A stretch of DNA of 61,656 nucleotides, filler included, from Basidioascus undulatus (lineage: Eukaryota): NCBI GenBank assembly GCA_000826855.1. It is 4 parts of 4 records of this genome, joined end to end, with 100 filler letters (N's around TTAATTAATTAA, not from the genome) between each part and the next. Parts side by side here need not be neighbours in the genome. Positions count along the whole stretch, not along the records: positions 1 to 15,441 come from JTLS01000645.1; 3 more parts are not named here. One strand, given 5' to 3'. The notes beneath the pieces are model-generated. The model saw only the letters and a list, made by a program, of their open reading frames with translations. It had not been told where the DNA came from and did not search any database. Position numbers and translations under genes: made by a program. Shown here piece after piece: positions 1 through 15,441 of this stretch (position 1 is the first letter of the stretch; every line of letters begins with the position of its first letter).

Positions 1-869
1 CCGATCACCACACTCAACTTCACCAGACGAGCAACTCCTCAACCTCGTTCCCACCCTCACCCTCTCAACCTCCTCGCCCGCACCCTCTTAACCCCCCCAA
101 CCTCGCCCTACGTGTTAGCTGACCCTCATCCTCTCGGCAGCTTACCCTCGTTCTTCCTCCCGACTATTGTATCGTAAGTATTCCTCTCCTTCTTTTCCTA
201 CTGCTTCCCACCAACTCACCTCCTTCCTCTCCGACAAACCACCCTCATCTCCTTCGTTTCCCACCAACTCACTTCCGTTCTCCTTCAACTTGCAGCCTCC
301 GCGAGTTTCAGCGCGGTTCTCCTCTGACAGTTTTCTCCCTACACAGGTACTGCGACAGCGAGAGTAACAGCGTACTATTTCGCTTGACTGCTGGTCGCTT
401 CGGCTCTTACTTCTTCATCCTCTCCCACAGATTCCGAGCATTGACGATCGCGACTCTGAGCTCCTTGACCTCTCTAGATGGCCATTAAGTTCTAAACAGG
501 CCAGGTCAGACTTGGGCTGGGGCAGGGAAGTAGGAAACATGAGAAACTTTCTTTTGCAACACGCTCGTTGCCATGACCCTTGCGGAGGAAGATGCGGGTC
601 GCGCTGGCGTGCATGGCCGCCGATAGGCTTTTTGTCGGCTGCGGCGAAGGCGGGAGCGGCGCCGAGGTCGTCTTGGACTTGGTTCGTGATACTGCAGACT
701 CTTCACGGCCCTTTCCTCAAATGCGCAGACTTGAATCAAACACCAAATATTGACTCCTGTCATCAGTTTTTAACCTGAACTGCGTATGAAAGACCTTGAA
801 AAAGCGGTGTTCTTCCGCAGATGGTAGATTGATCCTGTACGGATTGGTCGAAGAATATAAGATATACTC

Positions 870-1815
870 AAGCGATGTACACGGGGGTTGATGCGCGGAA
901 CATCAGTATGACTTCGGAAGCTCTAGAACCCTCCGCGATACATAGTTCCTGTGCTGAAAAACATCAGAGAGCGTTCACGTAGAGTAAGCGGGAAGGAACA
1001 CTCACAAGATCATCTCCCTCGAAACGGGCGTAATGCGAGGCACAAACACCTCCCGCAGGTACCGCTGGATTCGCGGGCGGTGTCAGCCGTGTAGCACGGC
1101 CCAGTTTCGCGGGAGCAAAGCCTGCCGTGCGCCAGATAGTGACGAGCTCGAGCTCGTGAGCTCGTGCAAGCGCAGGATAGACCTGTTCATCAGGGCTTTA
1201 TGAGATATTACTGTTCAACTTGGTTGTAGCACGGGAGAAAAAGCTACCTGACGCGAACATCTCCAGCCCCCACTTCGATGGTACCTTATCCAGGCGGGAA
1301 GCCGTTTCAGTTGCAAGAGCGCGCAGGCGCGTATGGTTCATTTACCTCCGAACGGCCGATCCAGAATGTTCAGCTTGCGGCTGTACCAGTCTGCCCGGAC
1401 GAACCACAATATGAGGCGAAGCCTTTCTGTTGAAACGCCGAGGCTAACGTACCGGCAAAGTTCAGCGACACCTCCTTCTTGCCAACCGAACTGGGTCAAG
1501 TTAGGAACGCTCGAAAGCCTTGCCAATTTTCCCGACCTTATATGATTACCGAGAGCTACAAGAGTACTCACCTTCCCCAAACACGACCACCATGCCCGGC
1601 GTCCCAGCCCGGCGTCCCAGCATCCTCCACCGAGCCATCTGGGCTCGAGTCTCCCAGGGACTCCGTATTCCTCATTGCTCCCTGCAGCAATGAGGCGACA
1701 TTGTGCGTCTCGTGAGGCCATAGAAAGTGGTAGCAAGTGATAGCAGCCCGCAGAAGACGAGGAAGACGACGGCTGCCTCTCGCACGATGCTGATGGTCGA
1801 GTCGAACTTGGGCAT
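870..1815 (-). pseudogene. Decayed paralog of the adjacent membrane-anchored IAH1-like SGNH esterase
   Basis: ATG at 1815 gives MPKFDSTISIVREAAVVFLVFCGLLSLATTFYGL (hydrophobic anchor), then ...AGTPGMVVVFG, LTQFGWQEGG, WYSRKLNILDRPFGG and VYPALARAHELELVTIW. These are exon-by-exon homologous to the gene at 2840-4068. Lesions: in-frame TGA at 1672-1674; 1-nt deletion in the GDS codons (ttt ggg ga-ag|gt versus ttc ggg gac ag|gt); acceptor AG replaced by AA at about 1502. The 3' boundary is approximate. Confidence 0.8.
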
Positions 1816-2839
1816 GGCTGCGCGTGGGGATGAATAGAGAGAAGAGTCGGCTTAGCCGGGCGAAGAATAGTAAGGGAAATAATGGATGGTGGGTGAGTAA
1901 GGACGGAGCGTCGTCTCAGCGACGGTTCCAACAGACCTGGTACTACAGAGTCGCGACGCGTCCCGGCCTCATTCTGACCGCTACGCCATCGTACCGGCAC
2001 ACGGATCATCATCAATACCAACCAATTTTCGAGATGCTGGCATGGCACCGTTTCTCCGACTCCTGAGGAACGACGCTGTCGAGGCCGTGAAGGGAAGTAC
2101 TACCGTCTCGCGAGTGGCGTCTTGGTGGCGTCGGGACTTGGCCCATCAAGTTGCCACTTGTCCCGACGCGCCTGTCGTGTGCAACTCGGGCCAAGTCCTG
2201 GAACATTATAATGACTTACGGATATATTTGAGCGGAAGTCAAGCAAAAATATCAGGAAGTTTAGAATTTCGTACCCGGAAGCGTACGAGAAATTGAAGGC
2301 TCCGGGCCTTGTTCAGTCGCGGAGTGTGGGCATTCACTTCGCGGCATCTTCACCCCCAAGCGATTCTCTCTACCAGTCTCCGGGGGAACAATGAGGTGGT
2401 ATGATTAGTGTTCTTTCTGAGCATTCGCGTCTGTTATTGATGACGGTTGATGCTACTTCGATTCATGCAAGCCGTCCGTCAGACCCGCTGCGTCACCGCA
2501 GTGTCCTAAGCCGTAGACACCCACAATTTTGCCAACTTATGCCAATTGTATGTGATGGAGTAGACCGTTCTTTCAACATCTGGTGGATGAGTTGCCAGAT
2601 GAAGGGATAACAGGACCAGAGGGCACGGTCGCGGAAGCCTGCCCGGCGGGGCTCCTGAGCAACGTGGCCTTCCTCGTGAATTACACTCCTGGCAGGCGCA
2701 AGCCAGCGCAGAAGAAACGCAAAAGGGGTATTTTATAATACAACAGAAGATGCACATGTGGTGCCAAGTAGCTCTAAGGAACGATCGGTGCGCCGTGATA
2801 GAAAATGTCCGATGGCCTGCAAGCTCCGAATGGCCTCCA

Positions 2840-4068
2840 TTAGTAACTGTAGCCCGCGAGGAATTCGTCGTAGAACGCACTGGGGATAGAATGTATGAAG
2901 TTGATTCGGATGCATCTCGGGCCACGTCTCCGCAATCTTCTTAGAGATTTCCGAGAACACCAACTGCAAAGAGCATCATAAGTCAACCGTTGCGGCAAGC
3001 GTCGCGCGGAATCAGCAGAGCGTTTGACCACTTACCTTGTTCCCCAGAGCGTTGTGATGGAGCCCATCCGACCAGAGCCCCCCTTGCGCTTCAGCACCGG
3101 GTATGGCCTTTTCGAAGGCGCCATACAGGTCCACCACGGGCACACCGCGCTCGGCGCCGATCGAGCGCACGGCCTCCGCGTACTCGTCGAAGCGCCAACC
3201 TTGCCATGGGTTGGGCGTCTGGTTCGGATCGACGGGTGTAGGGGTGATGAGGAGGACGCGTTGGGATTCGGGGAGGAGCGACAGCATCGCGTTGAGGTTG
3301 GACTTGTATTCGTCCTGAGGAACGCCCGGACCGTTCGGTATCATGTTGGCATCGTTATCACCTGAGTAGGAGTCAAGTCCTCAGGGATGTGCCTCTGGCT
3401 CCGCTTCTCTCCTGCCGAAAAACGCACCATACCAAAGCACGACAAGCTCTACGTTTAGCCTGTGGACGTCGACGAGCGCTGGGTAGACCTGTCGTTACAG
3501 GTAAGCAAGCGAGAAGTAAGAAGGAAAGGAAAGGGTTACTTGGGAGAACATTTGGAGGCCCCATCGGCTGGTATAGCCTGTAGAGATGAAGTGAGCCTCT
3601 TCCGGCACTCCAGCTCGTCCGCAACCACTCACCTCCAAAGCCTCGGTTGATAATGTCCAGCTTGCGCTCGTACCACACTTCCAAGGAGAAATATAAGAAT
3701 CCCTTGAAAAATATCCCCACTCCCAATAAAAGAGATAGCTTACAACTCATCAGGTGCACCCATCCACCTTCTCGCCAACCAAACTCCGTCAGGCTGTAGC
3801 GACACAGCGCTTTCAGCACGCGTTCGAATCCAGACTCGAGAGAGTTTCACGGCGCTCACCTGTCCCCGAACATGACTACCGTCCCCGGCGACCCCGCCCC
3901 GCCCACTGCGCTCACATCGCCTGCGGATGCGCCCAGCCGCTTCAACGAACCAGGTAGTGGCAGTCGTCCGCCACTCTCGAGGGAGGACATGGCGAGCAAG
4001 ACGAGCCCGAAGAGCGCGGTGAGGAGGACGAGCACATATCGCAAAACTGGAGATTCGGAGGCGTGCAT
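2840..4068 (-). CDS. SGNH/GDSL hydrolase, IAH1 (isoamyl acetate esterase)-like, with N-terminal transmembrane anchor; multi-exon
   Basis: Spliced translation shows all SGNH blocks: VVMFGD|SLTEFGW (block I), KLDIINRGFGG (II), VLWY|GDNDA (III), LLITPTPVD and LWSDGLH (V). The N-terminus YVLVLLTALFGLVLLAM is hydrophobic. Introns are GT-AG. Predicted end FYPHY* at 2840. Confidence 0.9.
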
Positions 4069-4716
4069 GTCGGTAAGGGTGCGGATGAGGGAGGAGGACG
4101 GAGAGAAGAAGGAAGATGACGGCGACGACGCGACTGTGCTCTGAATATCATACCTGCTCTAGCCAAGCACGTGGTGCGCCGCCATCCCCCCACAAAAGGG
4201 CCTAGTTGCGTCTGAAATAGATCCCTCCAAAATCAGGGACGTGATGCTTTGCACGGCGACGCAATCGGTCGACTCAAGAGCAGGATCGACATGGCAAACC
4301 TTTCAGCTGTCGACGATGGATGGCGATCAAGCCAGGGCCTCCGGCAGTCTCAGCCTCATTGTGCCTCACTCAGGTCTGCTCCCGTTTCTCCTGAATAGGA
4401 CAACCAAGAAAATGCTACCGCAATCGGTCGAACTAAATTTTAAAAAACCGCTTACTCGCTCTGCAAGATAAGAGTATGGCTGTTCGCTCAGGGCCCGAAA
4501 GTCGTGCAGCTGTTGGTGTGACTGTCAGCTGTCAAAGTGATCCTAGAGGAGTGCGTTGGACTTGGTAGGACCAGGGAAGCTCTTGGGGAAGCTCGCTTCC
4601 TCGCTTCGCAGCTTCCCTCACGACGATCTACGTAACGCATATATCCAGGGCAGGAGCCCTTAATACCTGTTTCTCTACGTCCCACTCACGTCTTTTCGCA
4701 TCGCAATTGCGTAGTG

Positions 4717-7074
4717 ATGCCGCGATATCCGACCAGTCGGCTGGCCATCGTCTCGGCCGTGGTCGCGAGCGCGCTCATCCTCCTCGCGGCTCACCGCTCG
4801 GGCACGTCCTCGAGCGACGTTATCGAGGCCTACCACCGCCATGTCGCGCCTCAAATACCATGGTTCTCTGATGCCGAAACCTGCATGTACGCCAAACACC
4901 CATGTCACTCAGAGCCTTGACGCCAATCACCGTTGCCGCCGCCCTGCAGAGACATACCCACACACCGCGACTCGGGCTTCGCAGCCTCGCTCTGCCGCCG
5001 GCGAAGAGCATGCGACGTCGCGCATGTCGAGATATGGAGGACGGATGAGGAAGCGTGCGCGGCTGCGGAAGCGCGCAGGCCGACCGCGGAGGAGGACCAG
5101 GTCGCGTTGGAGGAGACGTGGAGGGGCCCGGACTTGATACACGTTTTGGTGGATGGGGATCAGACGTGGGCTGTGGAGGATGAGGTGGAGTATTTTGGAG
5201 GTTGTAGGTACGTCTGTGGTTTATTTCTTGAAAGAGGGGAGGCATGCGCATGGGGTGAAGGCTAATACTGGGTGACCAGGTATCGGTATCGCTTGGAAGG
5301 CGGTCGCGATGACCAGGGGAAGCCGCTGAACGGGGAGCTCAGCCTCAAGGTGCGTTTATGTACAGTCTTTATCGCAACCCTCGCTCATCGGACTCTTATC
5401 TCTTGCAGATTGTACTGATGTTCGAGAACTGTGCGCTCCCCGAACCCACGTCTTCGTTTTCACACGCTGACCCGCTACCTCCCGCAGACGACTACTGGCG
5501 CCCCGAGCCGGCCGTTGTCTGGCGGTCCATGCAGCCAATCGTGCCCTCTTCCGCGGACGCGTCACTCCCCCTAGCGAACTGGACGTCCTACGCACCCCCA
5601 ACGCCGCTCCTCTGTTCCTCCACCGCGCGTCCCCGCGCGCCGGCGCTCTACCCCTCCTCCTCGCGCGCCCAACTCCCGCCTTGCTCGCGCACTCGTCCGG
5701 TCCGTGGGAACTACCTCCCCCCCGAAGAGAGCGACGCGGAATGGAGCTGGCAGGGGTACCAGTGGACGCCCGAGGGGTGCAGCATGACGGACATCATGCC
5801 GGACCCGTATGCGCCGCCGGAGGAGGCGGAGCGCTGGACGCGAAGGAAGAGGATGATTCTGTTCTGGGGGGACTCTCACCTGCGTGCGTTGGGATAGCGT
5901 TCGGTAACCGAGGGGCGAAAAATGGCTGATGAGGATTCCCGGTGGGCAGGTTTCGCGTTCCGGCATTTCAACGCTGTCATCCAGCAGGACATCGAGCACT
6001 TGCACGAACCTGTGAGACCATCGCGTTGTCCTTACTTACCCTGGACTGTAACTTATCGTGGATACTTGCAGATCACGGGCAAGACCGAATCCGAGACGAG
6101 CATCGTCCGCAATGTGACATCGCGGTACTTCGTGAGTGCCGACGCCTCGTCCAAACAGCAACTCCCGGGAGACTGACCAGTAATATTGCGCTCAGTGGAA
6201 CACCCATGCCACGTCAGTTTCCTTTCGTTCTCGTTTCCGCTTTTTCCCCGCCGACATGATGTCCATCTCTCAGTTTCCCTGGCTGCGGCGCAACAGTCTG
6301 GGACACGATCGTGATCAGCGCAGTAAGTCGCGATTTCCTACGTCCACACGAAGTTGTTCATCTAACGAGCTGTCCCTCGCAAGGGCCATCATAACCTCCT
6401 GCATCTCGCGCGGGTGACGAACCCGCAGGACGCGTATGGACACGTCTACGTCCTCGACGAATGGACTCGTCAGATCTTGGACCTGTTCGAGTCTCTGCAG
6501 AAGTGTTTCGACGATAAGTAAGCGTCTCGCGCTTCTTTGAGATGAGTGGGCGGCGGTGGCTGATGGAGAGATGGATGGGTTCACCAGCAATATACCTAAG
6601 CCCCGGTGAGCAGCGCTGGTAACAGGATATGCTGGGGGTCTCCGCTAAGATTCCTTCCTGTTTCAGTCTGATCTTCATGAGCCCTCCCGCTCGCGACCCT
6701 ACCACAGCCGGTCCTGTCAGTGCGTCCCGGGTTCACTTCACTCTCTCCTCTTCCTCCCCCTAAATCATGCCCAACTCCACGCAGACATCGACCTCGGCGA
6801 CGTAGACGGGCGCTCGAACGCCCGCCTGGCGCGGTACACGTACTCGGCGTTCGACGCGCTCTCCGCCTCCCCCGCGCTCGCCGACGCGGGCGCGGACGTC
6901 CGACTGGTCGACCAGTTCGCGCTCACGCTGCCGTTCATGTGGCACGCGCCGGACGGGCTGCACTTCCACCACACGGACGCGATGAGCGCGATCACGCACG
7001 AGCTGCTGTGGAAGATCGGGCTTGTCGAAGGCTTAGGCGAGGAGTGGGAGAAGCGGTATGACGAGTCGGGCTAG
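4717..7074 (+). CDS. Type II membrane SGNH-like (PC-esterase/NXPE/TBL-like) putative glycan O-acyltransferase or esterase; multi-exon
   Basis: N-terminal anchor LAIVSAVVASALILLAA. Motifs GPD, YQWTPEGC, MILFWGDSHL|R, LIFMSPPA, DGRSNARL and VDQFALTLPFMWHAPDGLHF (GDS...DxxH catalytic pattern). The exons checked join in frame through GT-AG introns. Stop TAG at 7072-7074. The family assignment rests on motif pattern, not a database search. Confidence 0.75.
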
Positions 7075-7977
7075 GACTTTGGGTAACTGCTGCGTAGACG
7101 TTCGGATGGTTCTTTGGACTTGAAGTCAGGCTTAATCGAGCATATTTATTGAACGTGCATGCTTCGTTTGTTCAGCTCGAATGTGGCAGCTCGATGGCTC
7201 GGTCAGTGAGGGCGCCGATTAGTGAGGGCTTGCCACCCTCGATAAATCACAACGTTCCACCGCTGTATGGTGGCCTTAGGGTCGAACTCCGAGCGCTAAC
7301 CACTACCGGAACTTGTAAGGACGCCTCCAGCGCTGAAAACCGTATCGGTAACACGTACGCCCGCCGCTGCTCAGTAGTGCACATGGGTCATGGACGCGCC
7401 GCTGGGCTCGCAGGCAGGACTAAGGAGGTGGCTAGGAGCACGGCCGATGTGAGGGAGGAGCTTGTTGACGAAAATGAATGTGGAGAAGTGCGACGCGTCA
7501 AGCGGCGTTCTAAAGAGGCAAATCCGCAGTGGCGAGCGCGCTGCGGCGCAGGATGCAGAGGGCCGGGCCGCATGCAGGCCGGCAACATTTCGTTGTGTCG
7601 TAGCCCTCGTTTCACAAGCCGGCGTACCGGTTTCAAGATGTATTCCGACTGGTTTCGAGTATCTCGGCATGACGATGAGTGTTTATCGAGGTAGAGAATA
7701 TATGTCTTGTGGGTGTACAGGTGCGCGTTTGGGAGATTATCTTGAAGCAGGTTTTGTGACGTCGATCGGAGTCCAATGTTGCCGCTAAGCAGCAGGCGCG
7801 GGTCAGGGCCGCTGCGGGAGCGATTGAAGGGGACGGCGAGTCACCTGTCTCCCTCTGTCTTCTCTCTCTACCTCCTCCCCCCATCACCGCCGCCTTCACC
7901 GCCCCCGGGCACACACTCGCTTTTCGTTTTCCACCCTCTGATCCGCCCAGCAGCCGGGACTCGATCTACGCGCAGCC

Positions 7978-9977
7978 ATGGCCGCGACGACCCACCAGCA
8001 GAAGCAGGATGAGATCGACCTCGAGGCGCTCCTGCCAGAGCATGACCCCAACGCCAAAGATGCCGCCGGCGTCGAGGCTCCCGCGCCCTCATCGCAACCC
8101 AAAGACGCTGGCGCCCAGGACAAGAAGACCTTGAGTCCTTATGTTATCATGTGCGTTGGAGACGGACAGGGGAGGCGACGGAGCAAGGCGAGGCTGAGGC
8201 TGATGGTCTCTTCGCGGCAGTCCGATTTGGATCGCGTTGTCTTCTGTGAGTCGCCGTTCGGTCGCTTCTTTAGAGGGCACATGCTGACGTGCTGGTGTGC
8301 GGTATGTATAGTCTGTGTGAGTTTGAGATTGGAATGCTTGATGGGCCTGGGTACACCGAAATCTGACTGTCGTGTCGTGCTTCTTGCGGATAGCATCTTG
8401 TACAACAAGGTACGCCGTGGCAGGCCTCCCAGTTTCTCCCTTACGTGTTAACATGGCCATCTGCCCGCAGTTGATCTTCACCACCCTCAAGTTCGAATAC
8501 CCCATCTTCCTCGTCACCTTCCACCTTGTACGCCTCTCCCGGCTCTCCTGTCTCCTAGGCAGCCCCTGACGCGACTCTTCACTCCAGACCTTCGCTGTAC
8601 GTGCCCCATCTCATCTGCAGAAATGAGGCCCAAGATCGAGACTAACGACGCCTGCGCCGCCGCAGACCATCGGCACGCGCATTCTCCGCCGCTTCACCCA
8701 CCTCCTCGATGATCTGAACGAGATCAACATGACGCGCGAGACCTGGACGCGCCGGATCCTGCCCATCGGCGTCCTCTTCTCCGGCAGTCTCATCTTCAGC
8801 AACATGGCCTACCTCTATCTCTCCGTGTCGTTCGTCCAGATGCTCAAGGTGCGCTCTTCGCCCTCTGCCTCCCTTCTCGCCCCTACCGTAACTCGCTGAC
8901 TCCTAACATTCACTTGATCTCAGGCGTTCACTCCCGTCTCCATCCTGTGCGCCTTTGAGATGCTCTGCATTGCTATGGAGAATTTAACTGAGTTGCGTGA
9001 ATGCTCCTCAACAGCATCATCTCGTTCGCCTTCGGCCTCTCCGCGATGGACCGCAAGCTGTTCGGCATCGTGTTCCTCATCTCCGCCGGTGTCTGCATCG
9101 CCTCATACGGCGAGGCCTCCTGGGACACGCGCGGCTTTATCTGCCAAGTCCTGGCCATCGTGGTGCGTCTTGCTTGCCTGGGAGTGCTTGGAGGCGGAAC
9201 GAGGGGCTCACTCGGGGGCGGGCGCGCAGCTCGAGAGCTCTCGCCTCGTCATGATTCAGCTCATCCTGCACGGCATGAAGGTGCGTCCTATCTCGCTTCA
9301 ATCTTTCACGACGAAATCGGACCTGATGGCCTCTTTCGTCACCACGCAGATGGGCCCGCTCACCTCGCTCTACTTCGTACGCCGCGTTTCCTGCCATATG
9401 TCTCGCCTGAAGCGCTCCAGACTAATTCATTCGTACAGTTCGCTCCCGTCTGCGCGGTCCTCAACGCCCTTGTCATCCCCTTCACCGAGGGCTGGGCGCC
9501 GTTCTACGCGCTCAAGGACCTCGGCGCCTTCGTGCTCCTCTCCAACGCGAGCATCGCGTTCGCGCTCAACGTCGCTGCTGTGTTCCTCATCGGCGCCGCG
9601 AGCAGCTTGTGCGTCAGCTTAGGACCTAATCTTGGCGTCTCTGAGGAGAGCGACTGACAGTTGTGGTGGACGGACAGGATCCTGACGCTTGCTGGTATCG
9701 GCAAGGGTGTGTGACTGGTCAAGGTTTGCGTGGGTCGGAAGACTGAATGCTGATACGGGCGACGCCCGATGCAGATCTCCTCCTTATCATGGGCTCCGTC
9801 GTCTTCTTCGGCACCCCCATCACGGGCGTCCAAATCATAGGGTACGCGATCGCCCTCGGCGGTCTCGTCCTGTTCAAGACTCAAGGCCAGGTACGTCTTC
9901 TACCATCCATGCGCTTCGTTCCTCTGGTTCATCTCATCTGACTCCCAACGCGCCCCTCGCTTTCACAGAAGAAGTAA
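7978..9977 (+). CDS. Triose-phosphate transporter (TPT)/SLC35-type nucleotide-sugar transporter; many short exons
   Basis: Spliced protein contains [93 protein letters not shown] and [12 protein letters not shown], all typical of the TPT/DUF250 family. It ends KTQGQKK* (TAA 9975-9977). Confidence 0.92.
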
Positions 9978-10670
9978 ACGCGTTATTCAAGACGGGTGGG
10001 GGAGCCGATCGGGGATCAGGAAGACGGCAGCAGCAGCATCGGGCAGAAGGGAATGAGGAGAGAAGAGGAGTATTGAAGATGCGGACCTTCTTTCCATCGC
10101 TTGTCGAGCGCAGGCCGCCGGGCAGCCGGGCGCCTCAGCAAAGCAAAGCACAACTTGTTTCTTCTTGTGTTGTTTGTATCACACCTCAAACCTCACTCAT
10201 TTCGTCTCTCCCCTCTTCTCTCTTTTTCTGCTTCTGCGCCTTCCGTTCCTTTTTTGCTCTCTTTCCCGGCACATCATTATCATAGAGCTTGTGTGGCACC
10301 TGAGTCCCGAGCGTGCAACGGTGGATGGCGGGGTCTGGTCGAGGAGGCAGGCTACGAAGCGGCCTTCGAGCTCGGTAGCCCATGACTCGCTTGACTTTAT
10401 CGAACAGTCTCGGTTATCAACATGATGCATACCTATCTCTGGAGGTCGACGCAGCACTTCGCACTGTAAGCTCACGACATGCGACATCCTCTGCATTAGC
10501 GGAGCTTGACAAGCTGTCAAAGACGCGTCTTCCTGCACTTTGCCAGCTGCCCGCGTCTTCGTCGCGTGAATCCTCGACGAGCCGTCGGTCGGTCATGCCC
10601 ACGCACACACAGAAGACCGTCACTCGTTCGCCTCTTGTTCACTGACCATCACGACGACGGCTCTGGGGCG

Positions 10671-13182
10671 ATGCTCACCTTTGCGCCCTGCGTGCGGCGC
10701 CTCGTCAACGCGCCGCCGCGCTCGCTGCCGCCGCTCTTCCTCACCTTTGACGCTGCTCGCTGTACTCGTCGCGCCGGTCTTGGCAATCGTTTTTCACGCC
10801 CCGTCACGGCAGGCAGTCCTGTCTTCTAGCACCCTTTCGCACCAGCAACCTCTTGGGCTCGGCACATCCTCCTCATGTCCATCGCCATTCCGTCCACCCT
10901 CGACCTCCCCCATTCCCCTTTCCTTTTCCCGCTATCCTGTCGACTCGGCTCTCGCGGAATGGAACGCGACACTATGTCGCCCGACTCCCGGCTCCCATGA
11001 CCATTGCAGCATCAGCAGCACCTTCACCCTCCTCATTGCGCGGACCGACCTGTCCATATGCACCGCGGACTTCGCTCCCGGCACGCTCAGGGCGGATCCC
11101 TATCTCGAGCGCTGGATCCACACCCAGCGCGGATCGGATTCGTTTTATGTCCGCACCAGCGGCGCGCAAGGCTGGGCGAGCGAGACGCCTGTGTATGACG
11201 CTGAGAAGTGTACATGGCGGTATGATGTGAGGCTTGGGAACGTCGGGAAAGTGAAGCTGGAGGCGTGGTGGACTTTCAAGGTAAGTTGTGTCTCTCGCGT
11301 AAACTTGACCTGTGTGTCCCGAAGGCTCAAACTGGAGGGACACCCGGGAACAGGACTACAACGCCTTCAACGACTCGAACGCTGGCCAAACTGTGTGACC
11401 CGACCAGCTCTTCACACCGCTCTTTCCTTCTCCCATCTCACCCGATATCTGCCCCTCATCCTCTTCTCCGAGCAGCTGCGCGCCGCAGCCCATTCCGCCT
11501 ACGGCTCCGTCTTCCCTCCCGTCATGCTCCGGCCCTGGGCCGATAGAGGGCTCGTACCTCCCCGCTCGGGCTTCTTCGCTCGACCGCCTCGAGGACGACC
11601 TCCCGGGCGGGTCTGGGCGGTACGCGTTCGTACCATCTACGTGCAGGTGGGACCACGCGGGCCTGCGGGCAGGGACCACACGCCGTGCCTGTTGAACGGC
11701 GAAAAGGGCGTGCTTGTGTTGGGGGATAGTCATAGGTGCGTTCGTTCTTCCAGCTTGGCGGCGTTTGTATAGACGCGCTGAAAGAATAGGGAACGTGCTG
11801 TGAAGGCGCGTCGCGTACGACAGCATGGTGCATTTCTGGGGCTACGACTCAATTTTGACAGTATCGGTGCGTCTTCCGACTGGCTGTACCGGCCGCAGTA
11901 CCGACTTGTTGTTGCAGGAGAAAGTAGGGCACAAGCTCGACATCCTTGGCGAAACGCAGTTCGCTTCTGGCTGGTAAGGCCATGTCTGTCCGCGACTGGC
12001 TTTATACTGTACTGACAATCGCCCTTCAACCCCAGGGACCCGATGGCGCAAGCGCTTGAGACCGCCTTCACATGCGAGCACCTATTGCGCTCGTTCTGCA
12101 GGCTGCAAGTTGCAAGTGGCATAGACGGTGGTATGGTATAGATAAAAATTTGGGGTCAAGAATGATGTGTAGAGGGTAGCAATGCGTGGCGAATGCGTCT
12201 CGTCTCGTGAGAGTCTCAGTCCGTTGTCTATGGAAGCTGCCGCGGGGGGCAGCAATTTGCACAGAATGAGGGTGAAAAGCAATAGAATAGAGAGGGGTTA
12301 GGCAGAGGAAGGTCGGATGGATTAAGCTGCGCTGGCGACAGGCGGTTGCTGCTGCTGCATGCTCCGCTTCGTCCCAAACTCGTGGGGCGGTTCCGAGATC
12401 CTTTCACCGAAGGACATCAAGCGTCAGCTCCCCTCCATCCCACGCAGGAAGACAAGGAGCAAGCCACTCACTCCTCCAAATCGTTCGACAGCGTAAGCGG
12501 CCCAAACTGGCCCACGCCATCCCCATTCCCATTCGGGCCCGCCCTCCTCACCGCCTGGGGCAAATCACAGCCATCGTCTTGTCTCTCGTAAGTTTCGGCC
12601 ATTCGTTCTCCCCCTCCGTCTTCTCACTTCCCGCTCGCTTCCAACACCCAGGGATCCTGGTACGCCTCCGCGCACCTCTCCATGTCCGACGCCCTCTCCC
12701 GCATTCTGTCCGTGCTTTCCACGCTGCACACGCTCTCCGAAGGAACCCCCCCGCACGCGTCCGGCCGTGCACAAAACCTCGTCTACCTCCTCCCGCCCGC
12801 GCAGCCGCCGCGGCAGGACAAGGGCGGAGCCTCGACCAGCGAACGAACGTTCGCCCTCGCGTACTGGCGCGACCGCCTCCTCCTTGGCACGCTCGAGCGC
12901 GGGTGGAAGGTCGTTGATCAGTACGAGGTCACGCTGCCGATGAGCGTGGAGCCAATGGAGCTGGACCATGTGCGCGCATTTTTGGAGAGAGCAGTTGGAA
13001 AGCGATGTGCTGACTTGACCTGCCTGCCTGATAGGCACATTACCTTATGACGGATGGTACGTCAGCCGTGGTCCACGGAGGTCACGAAGCTCAGAGTCTG
13101 ACCAGGGGCGGGGTGCACAGCAAACGATCCGCCGGTCGACGAGATCAACGAAGACGGGAATATGCGATGTGGACAGCGCTGA
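10671..13182 (+). pseudogene. Disrupted paralog of the PC-esterase-like gene at 4717-7074
   Basis: Same motif order: TM anchor LTLLAVLVAPVLAIVF, GSDSFYVRTSG, YAFVPSTC, VLVLGDSH, LVYLLPPAQPPRQD, VDQYEVTLP..ELDH|AHY. Lesions: frameshift at about 10746 between the ATG frame and the anchor frame, in-frame TGA at 11396-11398, frameshift at about 11670, and an unrelated stretch at about 12090-12550. Confidence 0.75.
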
Positions 13183-13799
13183 AGGGGACAGATGGTAGGG
13201 GGCTGGGTCGCTTGAAGAAGGAGCTCTTGATCTTGACGTATTTATTCGGGCTTGCGGTGCTTGTTCTAGGCTTGGCGTGAGGAGGAAGGTGGGCACATCC
13301 ATGCGGGTTCGTCCCCGGTTCCTTGCTGTACGGCAGTCTTGAGCGCAGCACGGTCTGTCCCGCAGCTCAGCTATATGAGCCATTGTGAGCCAACATTGAA
13401 GCGTGTGACGATCTTTGCTCGTCCCTGGGCAGCTGGAAGGCAGATTCGAGACACAGTGCCGGCGCACTACGCACGGGCGCTTACGACGAGTGAGGCAGGC
13501 AGCTTGCCTGAGTTAGGCCCATAACAAGAACCAACTTCGTCTGCACCAAACTAAAATATTTATAAGGCGTATAAATTTTGGCGAGTCGCGGCAGTGTACA
13601 GCCTGAGTAGTAGTCCAGGCGGTGACTCGCAATCCCGTTCCACCTTGCACGTACAAAATCAATCTCATGCACCATGAGAGAGAGCTATGGAGTCACTGTT
13701 TCCAGGTTCGACACCAGAATATGTGTTCTAGCGGCAGAGCTACCACCGTCTATCCCACCCATCGAGCATCGCTAGTTGCGCAATCTCAAAATTGATACC

Positions 13800-14281
13800 C
13801 AGCTCTCGACGTGGCTCACAAGCTCGACGATCTGTTCTCCTTCTTGACCCACTGCACGCTTCCGTCACTAGAGAGCTTCTGGACGGAAATCTTCGAGTTG
13901 CCCGCGGATGTGCTCCGGCCTTTCTGCGCTCGTCACGGTCTCCGACTGTGCAAGCTCTCCGCGATCTCGCTTGACGACGAAGGCGCCTTTTCAGGCATTG
14001 TGTACCTCTGCCCGCGCCTCGAGGTCATTAAAGTCGTGCTGTAGGACATCGAGTTCTTCGACTCCATCATAGCAGCGTGACCTCCCTCGCTCGTCGAGTT
14101 TGACGTGTTCTTCGACGGGAACGAGGCCCGCGTCATTGCGGGACTCCAACAGTTCATCCATGGAAACTACCCTTCGCTAAAGCGCATCATGCTCGACCCG
14201 TGTGTACCCGAGTCGCACGATTCTTTCATCGAGATCTGCAACCTTGCGAAGCGGATCTCCAGTCGTGTTGCATTACAATAA
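13800..14281 (+). pseudogene. Leucine-rich-repeat (F-box/RNI-like) gene relic
   Basis: Reads LTHCTLPSLESF...LCPRLEVIKVVL*DIEFF...AA*PPSLVEFDV...YPSLKRIMLD. LxxL-type repeats are interrupted by in-frame stops. Confidence 0.45.
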
Positions 14282-15149
14282 CCAGGGGATGTATTCGTCA
14301 TTGTACATCAACCAGCAAACATTTTTGAACGCTGAAACGCCGATATCCCCTCTGTCTCCCATGCCTTCGCAGCAGGGGGATCATGGGTAGGCGCTCGCCC
14401 CCTTACACAGCCGGCGTGGTCGATTTTGAGCCACAGCCAGCTCGAGCGGGCGGGCGTCGTGCTGCATGCCTATGGAGCCTTTGACGATCCGCGCTGCCGG
14501 AGCGACAGCTCGAACCCGACCTTTGCTCCGAGTGCGCTCGCACGGCCCAACAGGCGTGCGGCTGGGCTCCGACCTTCCCATGGGCAACTGAGCAGACCCA
14601 TACACAATCCGGCAAAGGTAATGGAATGCTCAGGCACCTAGCATTATCCAGAAGCTCTCGATTTGGCATGCTGGCGTAGCTTTCACACGGAACTAGCGGT
14701 TCCGTGAAGAGTAGTGAATCCTCGACGGAAGGGCGGAAACCAGTTCAGCGCACAACACTAGACTATAGCCTCGGATCCTACTGTATTAAAGGGGAGAGAA
14801 TAATCTGTGTAAAGATCTGACTCATTACATTGGGTCTGGCGCAGCGGAGCTTGCCTGACTGTAGCCTTGTTCGGGTTCCGCTGGCGGAACGCCAGCTGTT
14901 CTTCGCGACCCGCCAACTGACAATACTAGTTGGGAACACTTGTTAGAACTGAACCTGTCTGTACTGTAGTTGTTGCTTCAAGCAGAGTATTTTGTTTGGC
15001 AACACGAGATCGAGGAAATATTCATCTTCTCTATCCACGGTGCGAGGCCCTGCGGCGCTAGTCTTTGGTGCAGCTGCTACGCTTATCATCCTACGCTCAT
15101 CATCTCATCTTGCAACGTCCAGATTCTTCGCATTAGCCTTGGAGCCGCC

Positions 15150-15441
15150 ATGCCTAACCCTTCGCTCCCTGCTGAGGTTTGGTCCCGCGTCTTCGAGCTG
15201 GTTGTCGGCGACACGGCCAATGTCGGTGACGCCGGCGATGGTGGTGCACCTCGCGCTTGTCTGTCGATCTTGGAATGTGAGTGTGACACCCATGCCGCTT
15301 GCATGGTGAGCTAAACGTTTAAATCCTTCTGATCAACCTATAGCAACTCTCAGAGCCGTCTCGTCATCGCTCCTTGACTCTCGAGAGCGACGAGGAGATT
15401 CGCATGTTCGCTCGCCTGCTCGTCTCCCTCGGTCTTGCTGG
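15150..15441 (+). pseudogene. F-box protein 5' fragment, disrupted and cut by the gap
   Basis: MPNPSLPAEVWSRVFELV...AACMVS*TF matches the F-box pattern LP.E....IF...L..VSK.F, with a TAA at the K position. Confidence 0.5.

Follow-up and report, generated by a model that had tools for sequence, protein, structure and literature searches.

Proteins of the PC-esterase superfamily carry a GDS motif and a DxxH motif, with W/H instead of the Asn of SGNH hydrolases (PMC2824669). Human NXPE1, a sialic acid O-acetyltransferase of the NXPE/FAM55 family, depends on acetyl-CoA and on the serine of its GDS motif, and in vitro it modifies CMP-sialic acid with acetyl groups (PMC12216134), while the plant TBL protein XOAT1 (ESK1) uses acetyl-CoA as the donor and a Ser-His-Asp triad (bioRxiv 10.64898/2026.05.20.726592). 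Acetyl delivery has been attributed to membrane domains of the RWA/Cas1 type, which is unproven (PMC6110886). In Cryptococcus, Cas1 and Cas3 influence capsule O-acetylation (PMC10889740, PMC12892975); the Cas3/Cap64 family is described as limited to basidiomycetes (PMC8374607), and two of its members are annotated as SGNH-type (PMC12506587). SLC35/TPT carriers bring activated donors into the Golgi, and Cryptococcus Uxt1 and Uxt2 transport UDP-xylose and UDP-galactofuranose (PMC5773217); their locus numbers are those listed for CAS4 and CAS41 (PMC10826398). The clustering of fungal glycan genes has precedents in the galactosaminogalactan (GAG) cluster (PMC4817252) and in ugmA-ugtA (PMC4630932). 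Here, we analyse a 61,656-nucleotide stretch of Basidioascus undulatus DNA (the window), and in it a contig on which an NXPE-like PC-esterase gene (g3) lies between genes for an anchored SGNH esterase (g2) and a TPT/SLC35 transporter (g4), flanked by two pseudogenes (g1 and g5). Profile matches and structural modelling of a relative place g3 and g5 in the PC-esterase superfamily, in a fungal NXPE-like branch that is still uncharacterised, with a predicted SGNH fold. We tentatively read the locus as a glycan-modification neighbourhood that is small, specific to this lineage and in part decayed.

Positions 1–15441 of the window are one whole contig, C2598 (JTLS01000645.1), from an assembly of 32.1 Mb in 2992 contigs; the remaining window consists of other contigs. 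Most of this 15.4-kb contig is occupied by five consecutive loci, whose order and orientation are as given in a preliminary description of the sequence, which had proposed a clustered Golgi cassette for glycan O-acylation and de-acylation. The labels “Golgi” and “nucleotide-sugar” are inferred from family membership. Three public sequencing runs were aligned to the contig: X1 and X2 (DNA) and X3, which is labelled “DNA?” and was taken as RNA solely because its contigs contain GT..AG joints. The models of g2, g3 and g4 have no internal stops and GT-AG introns of 51–78 nt. Introns this short, like the taxa of the named relatives, indicate a basidiomycete. The X3 contigs demonstrate splicing of all three genes in one library, which does not thereby establish co-expression. 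The loci are as follows.

1127–1815 (about), minus strand: g1, pseudogene, tandem paralogue of g2, exons 1–5 only.
2774–4068, minus strand: g2, canonical SGNH/GDSL esterase, intact; 284 amino acids, 8 exons; PF13472, E 6e-11; 901-nt RNA contig.
4069–4716, no strand: intergenic region of 648 bp separating the start codons of the divergently oriented g2 and g3.
4717–7074, plus strand: g3, type II NXPE-like PC-esterase, intact; 532 amino acids, 13 exons; family profile 235 bits, residues 5–518.
7978–9977, plus strand: g4, TPT/SLC35 transporter, intact; 346 amino acids, 15 exons, including micro-exons of 5, 9 and 16 nt.
10671–13182, plus strand: g5, pseudogene from the NXPE-like clade that does not contain g3; its GDSH and DHAH motifs can still be read.

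The intact type II GDS...DxxH protein previously noted as divergent from the esterase is g3, which stands head-to-head with g2. Its 1756-nt RNA contig begins at 4617, matches the 13-exon model base for base at every listed piece, and revealed a 57-nt stopless intron. The region 4069–4716 is a candidate shared promoter of g2 and g3. The g3 protein has a single hydrophobic segment, an anchor at residues 7–25, together with 10 cysteines and two sequons, and the RNA-checked model carries the motifs GDSH (301–304, with S303), AGHH (368–371) and DGLH (493–496, with D493 and H496). There is no GxND; His371 occupies the place of the SGNH Asn, and a His is conserved in that alignment column. The protein thus combines the features of a PC-esterase: GDS and a C-terminal DxxH, W/H replacing GxND, an N-terminal anchor and bracing cysteines. 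Pfam scans of the exons of g3 and g5 gave no match. A word-indexed protein search with a single exon likewise found nothing for g3 or for g2, which is weak evidence in either case.

Relatives were sought with a profile of five exon pieces, which drew 75 proteins from among 1.84 billion. By BLAST, 39/75 matched g3 and 43/75 matched g5; the profile also drew repeat-rich proteins, and only BLAST-supported relatives were kept. Twenty relative clusters were looked up, and the 15 for which an organism was named were all “hypothetical” or “uncharacterized”, from Mycena, Schizophyllum, Exidia, Dacryopinax, Rhodotorula, Rhodosporidiobolus, Sporobolomyces, Pseudohyphozyma and Mortierellaceae; none of these 15 was from a Tremellomycete or carried a capsule-related name. 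Curated Pfam cut-offs for SGNH-type families were reached by 0/22 relatives, and none matched Neurexophilin; NXPE4_C gave weak matches in four of the 22, all below cut-off. Stand-alone signal-plus-PC-esterase proteins are already known from Laccaria, Coprinopsis, Phycomyces and a diatom (PMC2824669 supplement). No function for fungal NXPE-like or PC-esterase proteins, nor such a gene arrangement, was found in the literature covered, which left out most subscription journals.

Profile and structure comparisons point to the same superfamily. Searched against PDB sequences, the full-length family profile gave ESK1/XOAT1 as its best match (E 0.0023; three matches at E ≤ 10), whereas a short profile, A2, gave no meaningful PDB match. 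The same family profile matched the lumenal exon of this genome’s own Cas1 (probability 95.9, E 5e-9). As a structural stand-in we used P0045 from Exidia, which shares 27% identity with g3 across 475 columns and has an AlphaFold2 model with a predicted local distance difference test (pLDDT) score of 86.8. Among 48,161 chains, XOAT1 was the top match of this model (Z 15.8, root-mean-square deviation (rmsd) 4.7, 240 aligned), the next having Z 12.8. In the Atlas, the model matched an NXPE1-like cluster over 347 residues covering both domains, with a template-modelling (TM) score of 0.55, and also unnamed clusters from Mucoromycota, Zoopagomycota and diatoms; an Atlas search with one g5 exon gave no usable match. 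Brr2 helicases, which led the Foldseek ranking by E-value, were discarded as noise (TM 0.14, rmsd above 16). We infer from the stand-in that g3 has an Ig-like N-domain. Together with the motifs, these matches bear out the earlier assignment of the GDS/DxxH proteins to the PC-esterase superfamily, with a predicted SGNH fold.

Each of the described systems resembles the family in part. NXPE/FAM55 proteins share with g3 a type II anchor, a GDS...DxxH domain and a similar length, and probably an Ig-like part on the N-terminal side of that domain, but the g3 relatives fall below the Pfam cut-off without a Neurexophilin match, and a sialic acid acceptor cannot be assumed. Plant TBL/XOAT1 is the top structural and PDB profile match and shares a Cys segment before GDS and a single anchor; identity is only 13%, however, and the g3 family has an extra N-terminal beta domain. 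The lumenal domain of Cas1p/CASD1 is homologous to g3 and g5, but both lack the multi-pass PF07779 acyltransferase domain, g3 has just the one hydrophobic segment, and a separate CAS1 lies on C2580. Cryptococcus Cap64/Cas3, basidiomycete capsule-modifying proteins, are likened to g3 and g5 by description, not by sequence. The preliminary description had assigned Cryptococcus CAP64/CAS3 and CAS4 to similar families; this finds support in that CAS4/CAS41 are Uxt1/Uxt2 by locus number and two Cas3-like loci are annotated as SGNH-type.

The family alignment contains an invariant Cys, and GDS is conserved in 28/32 aligned rows. A tree of these 32 rows (LG+G4, ultrafast bootstrap (UFBoot), rooted on Mortierellaceae plus P0064, with g3 entered as a 551-residue model and match columns only) grouped g5 and a copy on C2515 with proteins of Mycena, Schizophyllum, Dacryopinax and Sporidiobolales (UFBoot 100). 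The g3 protein grouped with two paralogues of its own (UFBoot 96), beside Auriculariales-type proteins (UFBoot 100). As g3 and g5 belong to two different clades, each with UFBoot 100, and share 20.6% identity over 442 columns, a recent tandem duplication was rejected as their origin.

The g2 model of eight exons, the last of them predicted, encodes an N-terminal hydrophobic anchor (12–30), GDS (S70), the block II Gly, GxND (135–138) and DGLH (233–236). All four blocks of canonical SGNH/GDSL hydrolases (Ser, Gly, Asn and His) are therefore present, and PF13472 scores above cut-off. The 901-nt X3 contig spans the gene and agrees in length with the model on either side. The intact anchored SGNH esterase of the preliminary description is accordingly real. 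In its four blocks g2 resembles yeast IAH1 and other canonical SGNH esterases, with a weak match to 3mil (E 0.022), but it differs in having an N-terminal anchor and in belonging to a lineage-expanded set. Because its solved relatives (14 matches) are mixed, comprising lipase/acylhydrolases, yeast isoamyl-acetate esterase and acetylxylan esterases, it is possible that g2 is an ester eraser, a de-O-acetylase acting on glycans. Related SGNH esterases were seen at L019, L023, L032, L033 and L035 (on C2510, C2514, C2658, C366 and C2, respectively). Most have a hydrophobic N-terminus where it is visible, C2514 bears a second tandem pair, and some catalytic motifs are altered. The idea that C2510, C2514 and C2515 form a second cluster, suggested by their similar contig numbers, was rejected, since the numbers merely rank contigs by length.

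The TPT/SLC35 transporter also stood up. Splicing of g4 is visible in an X3 RNA contig at no fewer than 11 joints, which confirm the micro-exons at 8312–8316 (5 nt) and 8588–8596 (9 nt), and the protein has eight hydrophobic segments over threshold. Its short exons gave no Pfam score of their own; the assignment to PF03151 is by proxy, through an intronless relative (the L056 open reading frame (ORF)) that is 59% identical to g4 and scores E 2e-23. By family, g4 is probably a nucleotide-sugar transporter, presumably akin to the Uxt/GlfB group that carries UDP-xylose and UDP-galactofuranose. Like Uxt1/Uxt2 (Cas4/Cas41) and Aspergillus GlfB/UgtA, it is of the TPT family and of similar size, and a paralogue at about 47% on C2316 makes a pair here as in Cryptococcus. 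Aspergillus UgtA is clustered with an enzyme of its own pathway, a mutase (PMC4630932), whereas the neighbour of g4 is an acyltransferase-like gene.

If the three intact genes do act together, g3 would be a lumen-facing O-acyltransferase with a Ser303-His496-Asp493 triad, most likely acetylating a secreted or wall glycan. It would act through an acyl-enzyme intermediate, as do XOAT1, CASD1 and NXPE1; fold and motifs come from the stand-in, while activity, acceptor and location are extrapolated. By family, its acyl donor would be acetyl-CoA or a carrier provided by genes elsewhere, for instance through the membrane domain of Cas1, rather than anything supplied by g4. The transporter would import a nucleotide sugar for the same glycan, probably UDP-xylose or UDP-galactofuranose if the presumed likeness holds, and the glycosyltransferases would be encoded elsewhere. 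In the weakest step, g2, divergent from g3, may edit or remove esters. A second writer from an older clade (g5) and a tandem esterase copy (g1) would have died, leaving g2, g3 and g4 as the working unit today.

At each of the two dead loci there is a captured piece of an unrelated gene.

519–1069, minus strand: decayed, captured 3′ end of an acyl-CoA dehydrogenase gene, 73% identical over 567 columns to L039 (C113).
12086–12561, minus strand: insertion within g5, which copies, at 90% identity, the 3′ end of a protein-kinase gene on C2340 together with the flank downstream of it.

The pseudogene g1 has a stop at codon 48 (1674–1672), its GDS is not intact, splice acceptors are lost and the DxxH exon is absent. 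The preliminary description had placed a dead anchored SGNH esterase at the left end, starting at 870. The gene is indeed broken, but that start lies outside it, in the acyl-CoA dehydrogenase copy, so that 870–1069 is non-esterase. The segment 519–1069 stands where the missing 3′ half of g1 would be (the donor exon on C113 scores PF00441 at E 1.4e-4), and 1070–1128 is an 85% match to C544. The dead second GDS...DxxH protein is confirmed as g5, which has frameshifts near 10750 and 11671, an in-frame stop at 11396–11398 and the 476-bp insertion. The donor exon on C2340 scores Pkinase at E 0.004, and we take the kinase to be of the MAP-kinase type from its motif. The X1 and X2 DNA contigs bridge the left junction of the insertion and show no differences from the window over pieces spanning 582–12157. 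As they agree with the window, the lesions in g1 and g5 are not peculiar to one assembly, and an assembly error as their origin is not supported, with the reservation that both runs are possibly the source of the assembly and so not independent.

RNA contigs touch g5 at 10650–11028 (a 378-nt piece) and at 12035–12399, where a kinase-transcript contig reaches the g5 splice acceptor at 12036. This hints at continuing transcription and splicing of the pseudogene, insert included, though the contig is possibly chimeric. The C2515 copy (L025:5400-7320), the sole other member of the g5 clade found in the genome, has three frame changes as judged from the assembly alone; the g5 clade, widespread in other fungi, may be on its way to loss in this lineage, whereas that of g3 has expanded. 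The same contig carries a tandem pair of squalene-epoxidase-like genes or gene pieces (L026:41-4205). Among the g3 paralogues, the one on C2072 (L011:2-250) has GES instead of GDS, its N-terminal half probably lying at the end of C988. A paralogue on C2798 (L031:7486-8255) has an asparaginase-family sequence directly upstream of its GDS exon, and its N-terminal half was not seen. The captured 3′ ends of unrelated genes, acyl-CoA dehydrogenase at g1 and kinase inside g5, together with the C2798 paralogue, suggest that templated insertion or gene-fragment capture is frequent in this genome.

The outer loci lie 1.1 kb and 2.3 kb from the ends of the contig. On the left, positions 1–370 (plus strand) hold the 3′ end of an intron-containing gene without a Pfam match, and one DNA contig reaches another 2.1 kb beyond it on the upstream side. 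To the right of g5, 13734–14700 is occupied by a multi-copy repeat, where depth is raised and variant contigs are numerous; ORF fragments nearby have no Pfam match. The other contigs of the window (15542–61656) carry PX-domain, Zn2Cys6, ZIP transporter, cyanase and Rtf2 genes, which bear no relation to the five loci.

Whether the linkage means anything depends first on how often such neighbours arise by chance. The genome holds, as lower bounds, at least eight g2-like loci on six contigs (g1 included), at least six NXPE-like loci (C988 and C2072 being taken as halves of one gene) and at least four TPT loci; the families are not so expanded as to make adjacency trivial. A simple model, assuming 6,000–12,000 genes and a broad glycan class of 100–300 genes, gives an expected 0.004–0.008 NXPE-like/TPT adjacencies per genome, and 6e-5 to 0.04 runs of four genes from the broad class. 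Adjacency in one genome is thus unlikely by chance. Several observations nevertheless weigh against a functional neighbourhood. A run of three, with g2 not counted as a glycan gene, is expected 0.007–0.75 times per genome. Because the glycan class was defined after the locus had been seen, and because a very large scan preceded the choice of this locus, chance is made less probable and no more than that. None of 13 other contigs bearing g2-like, NXPE-like or TPT members (10 whole, 3 partial; most under 20 kb) carries a second of these families. Their Pfam-identified neighbours (115/703 and 148/1334 ORFs scanned) include Sir2, squalene epoxidase, ERG4/24, P450, helicases and trafficking genes; the sole carbohydrate-related match among them is to an Fn3-like domain, at a distance of 12 kb from one esterase. 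Relatives of g4 at 30 metagenomic loci, mostly short and distant (4 of the 19 measured have at least 9 kb on one side), have no NXPE-like or g2-like neighbour, and the 20 ORFs scanned at the ends of C2598 include no glycosyltransferase or epimerase. All 5/5 PF07779 matches place this genome’s CAS1 on C2580, unlinked to C2598; two of the five genes are dead; and the RNA, from one library only, carries no co-expression information. The GAG cluster resembles the locus in linking exopolysaccharide genes, including a de-acylating enzyme, without a polyketide synthase (PKS) or non-ribosomal peptide synthetase (NRPS), but it comprises five co-regulated genes conserved across Pezizomycotina, with a deacetylase of another family (PMC4817252), whereas no synthase was found on C2598.

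Coincidental juxtaposition is therefore a serious possibility, if still a doubtful one: members of birth-and-death families, the anchored SGNH esterases and the NXPE-like proteins, would have landed beside a conserved housekeeping transporter or persisted there from an old tandem array, each intact gene working with unlinked partners and its position being uninformative. The many g2-like and NXPE-like loci, otherwise dispersed and in several cases degenerate, fit this account, as do the failure of the pairing to recur in the 13 contigs or 30 metagenomic loci, the repeats and captured fragments on the contig, the near-consecutive locus numbers of the Coprinopsis stand-alone PC-esterase genes (CC1G_05882/05884/05885; PMC2824669 supplement) and the very large scan from which the locus was picked. 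Against it, a family-specific adjacency is expected far below once per genome, and on the tree the g3/g5 split predates the divergence of the relatives in Agaricomycotina from those in Sporidiobolales, which would demand great age of any tandem retained here. The opposite extreme, a conserved cassette, complete in itself, whose carrier g4 brings in the donor that g3 uses, could draw on the adjacency and shared strand of g3 and g4 and on the import of activated donors into the Golgi by SLC35/TPT carriers (PMC5773217). We consider it highly improbable. NXPE1 requires acetyl-CoA and XOAT1 uses it, the g4 family carries nucleotide sugars and CAS1 lies on C2580, so g4 is unlikely to import the donor of g3; conserved linkage was seen at none of the 30 metagenomic loci. 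The donor-import role given to the carrier in the preliminary description is accordingly not supported.

Two other accounts keep the genes together with a different target. Instead of a polymer of the wall or capsule, the product might be a small glycoside or a glycolipid that is secreted, with g4 supplying the sugar nucleotide, g3 adding acyl groups and g2 trimming them. The solved relatives of g2 include lipase/acylhydrolases and yeast isoamyl-acetate esterase besides acetylxylan esterases, and several g3/g5-family members come from Sporidiobolales and Dacryopinax, groups that secrete acetylated glycolipids. The characterised PC-esterase-type transferases compared here, however, act on glycans or a nucleotide sugar, and no fatty-acid or glycosyltransferase gene was found on C2598 among the 20 end ORFs, which leaves this account unlikely. 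Decidedly unlikely in our judgement, too, is the acylation of a UDP-sugar in the Golgi before polymerisation, in which g4 would import the acceptor, g3 would acylate it as NXPE1 and CASD1 do CMP-sialic acid, and g2 would edit the product. If true, that reading would make the linkage of transporter and acyltransferase mechanistic, give the fungal NXPE-like family its first function and define a basidiomycete class of non-PKS/NRPS glycan-tailoring cluster. We thus keep to the glycan-modification neighbourhood as a tentative reading: the family calls of the preliminary description are right, its donor-import logic is wrong and the status of the locus as a cluster is unproven.

O-acetylation of gels and wall polymers in fungi beyond Cryptococcus is a largely open question; acetylated gel polysaccharides are reported from jelly fungi. 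If the linkage at this locus is functional, the transporter is a clue to the sugar and the esterase suggests turnover, and standard cluster finders would miss clusters of this kind; if it is coincidence, the family assignment of g3 and g5 holds and the locus itself is ordinary. The g3 family has only “hypothetical” names and no Pfam model above cut-off, yet its predicted fold is like those of XOAT1 and NXPE1. With g3, one expressed member becomes available for testing as an enzyme, and the family is widespread in Agaricomycetes, Dacrymycetes, Sporidiobolales and Mortierellaceae.

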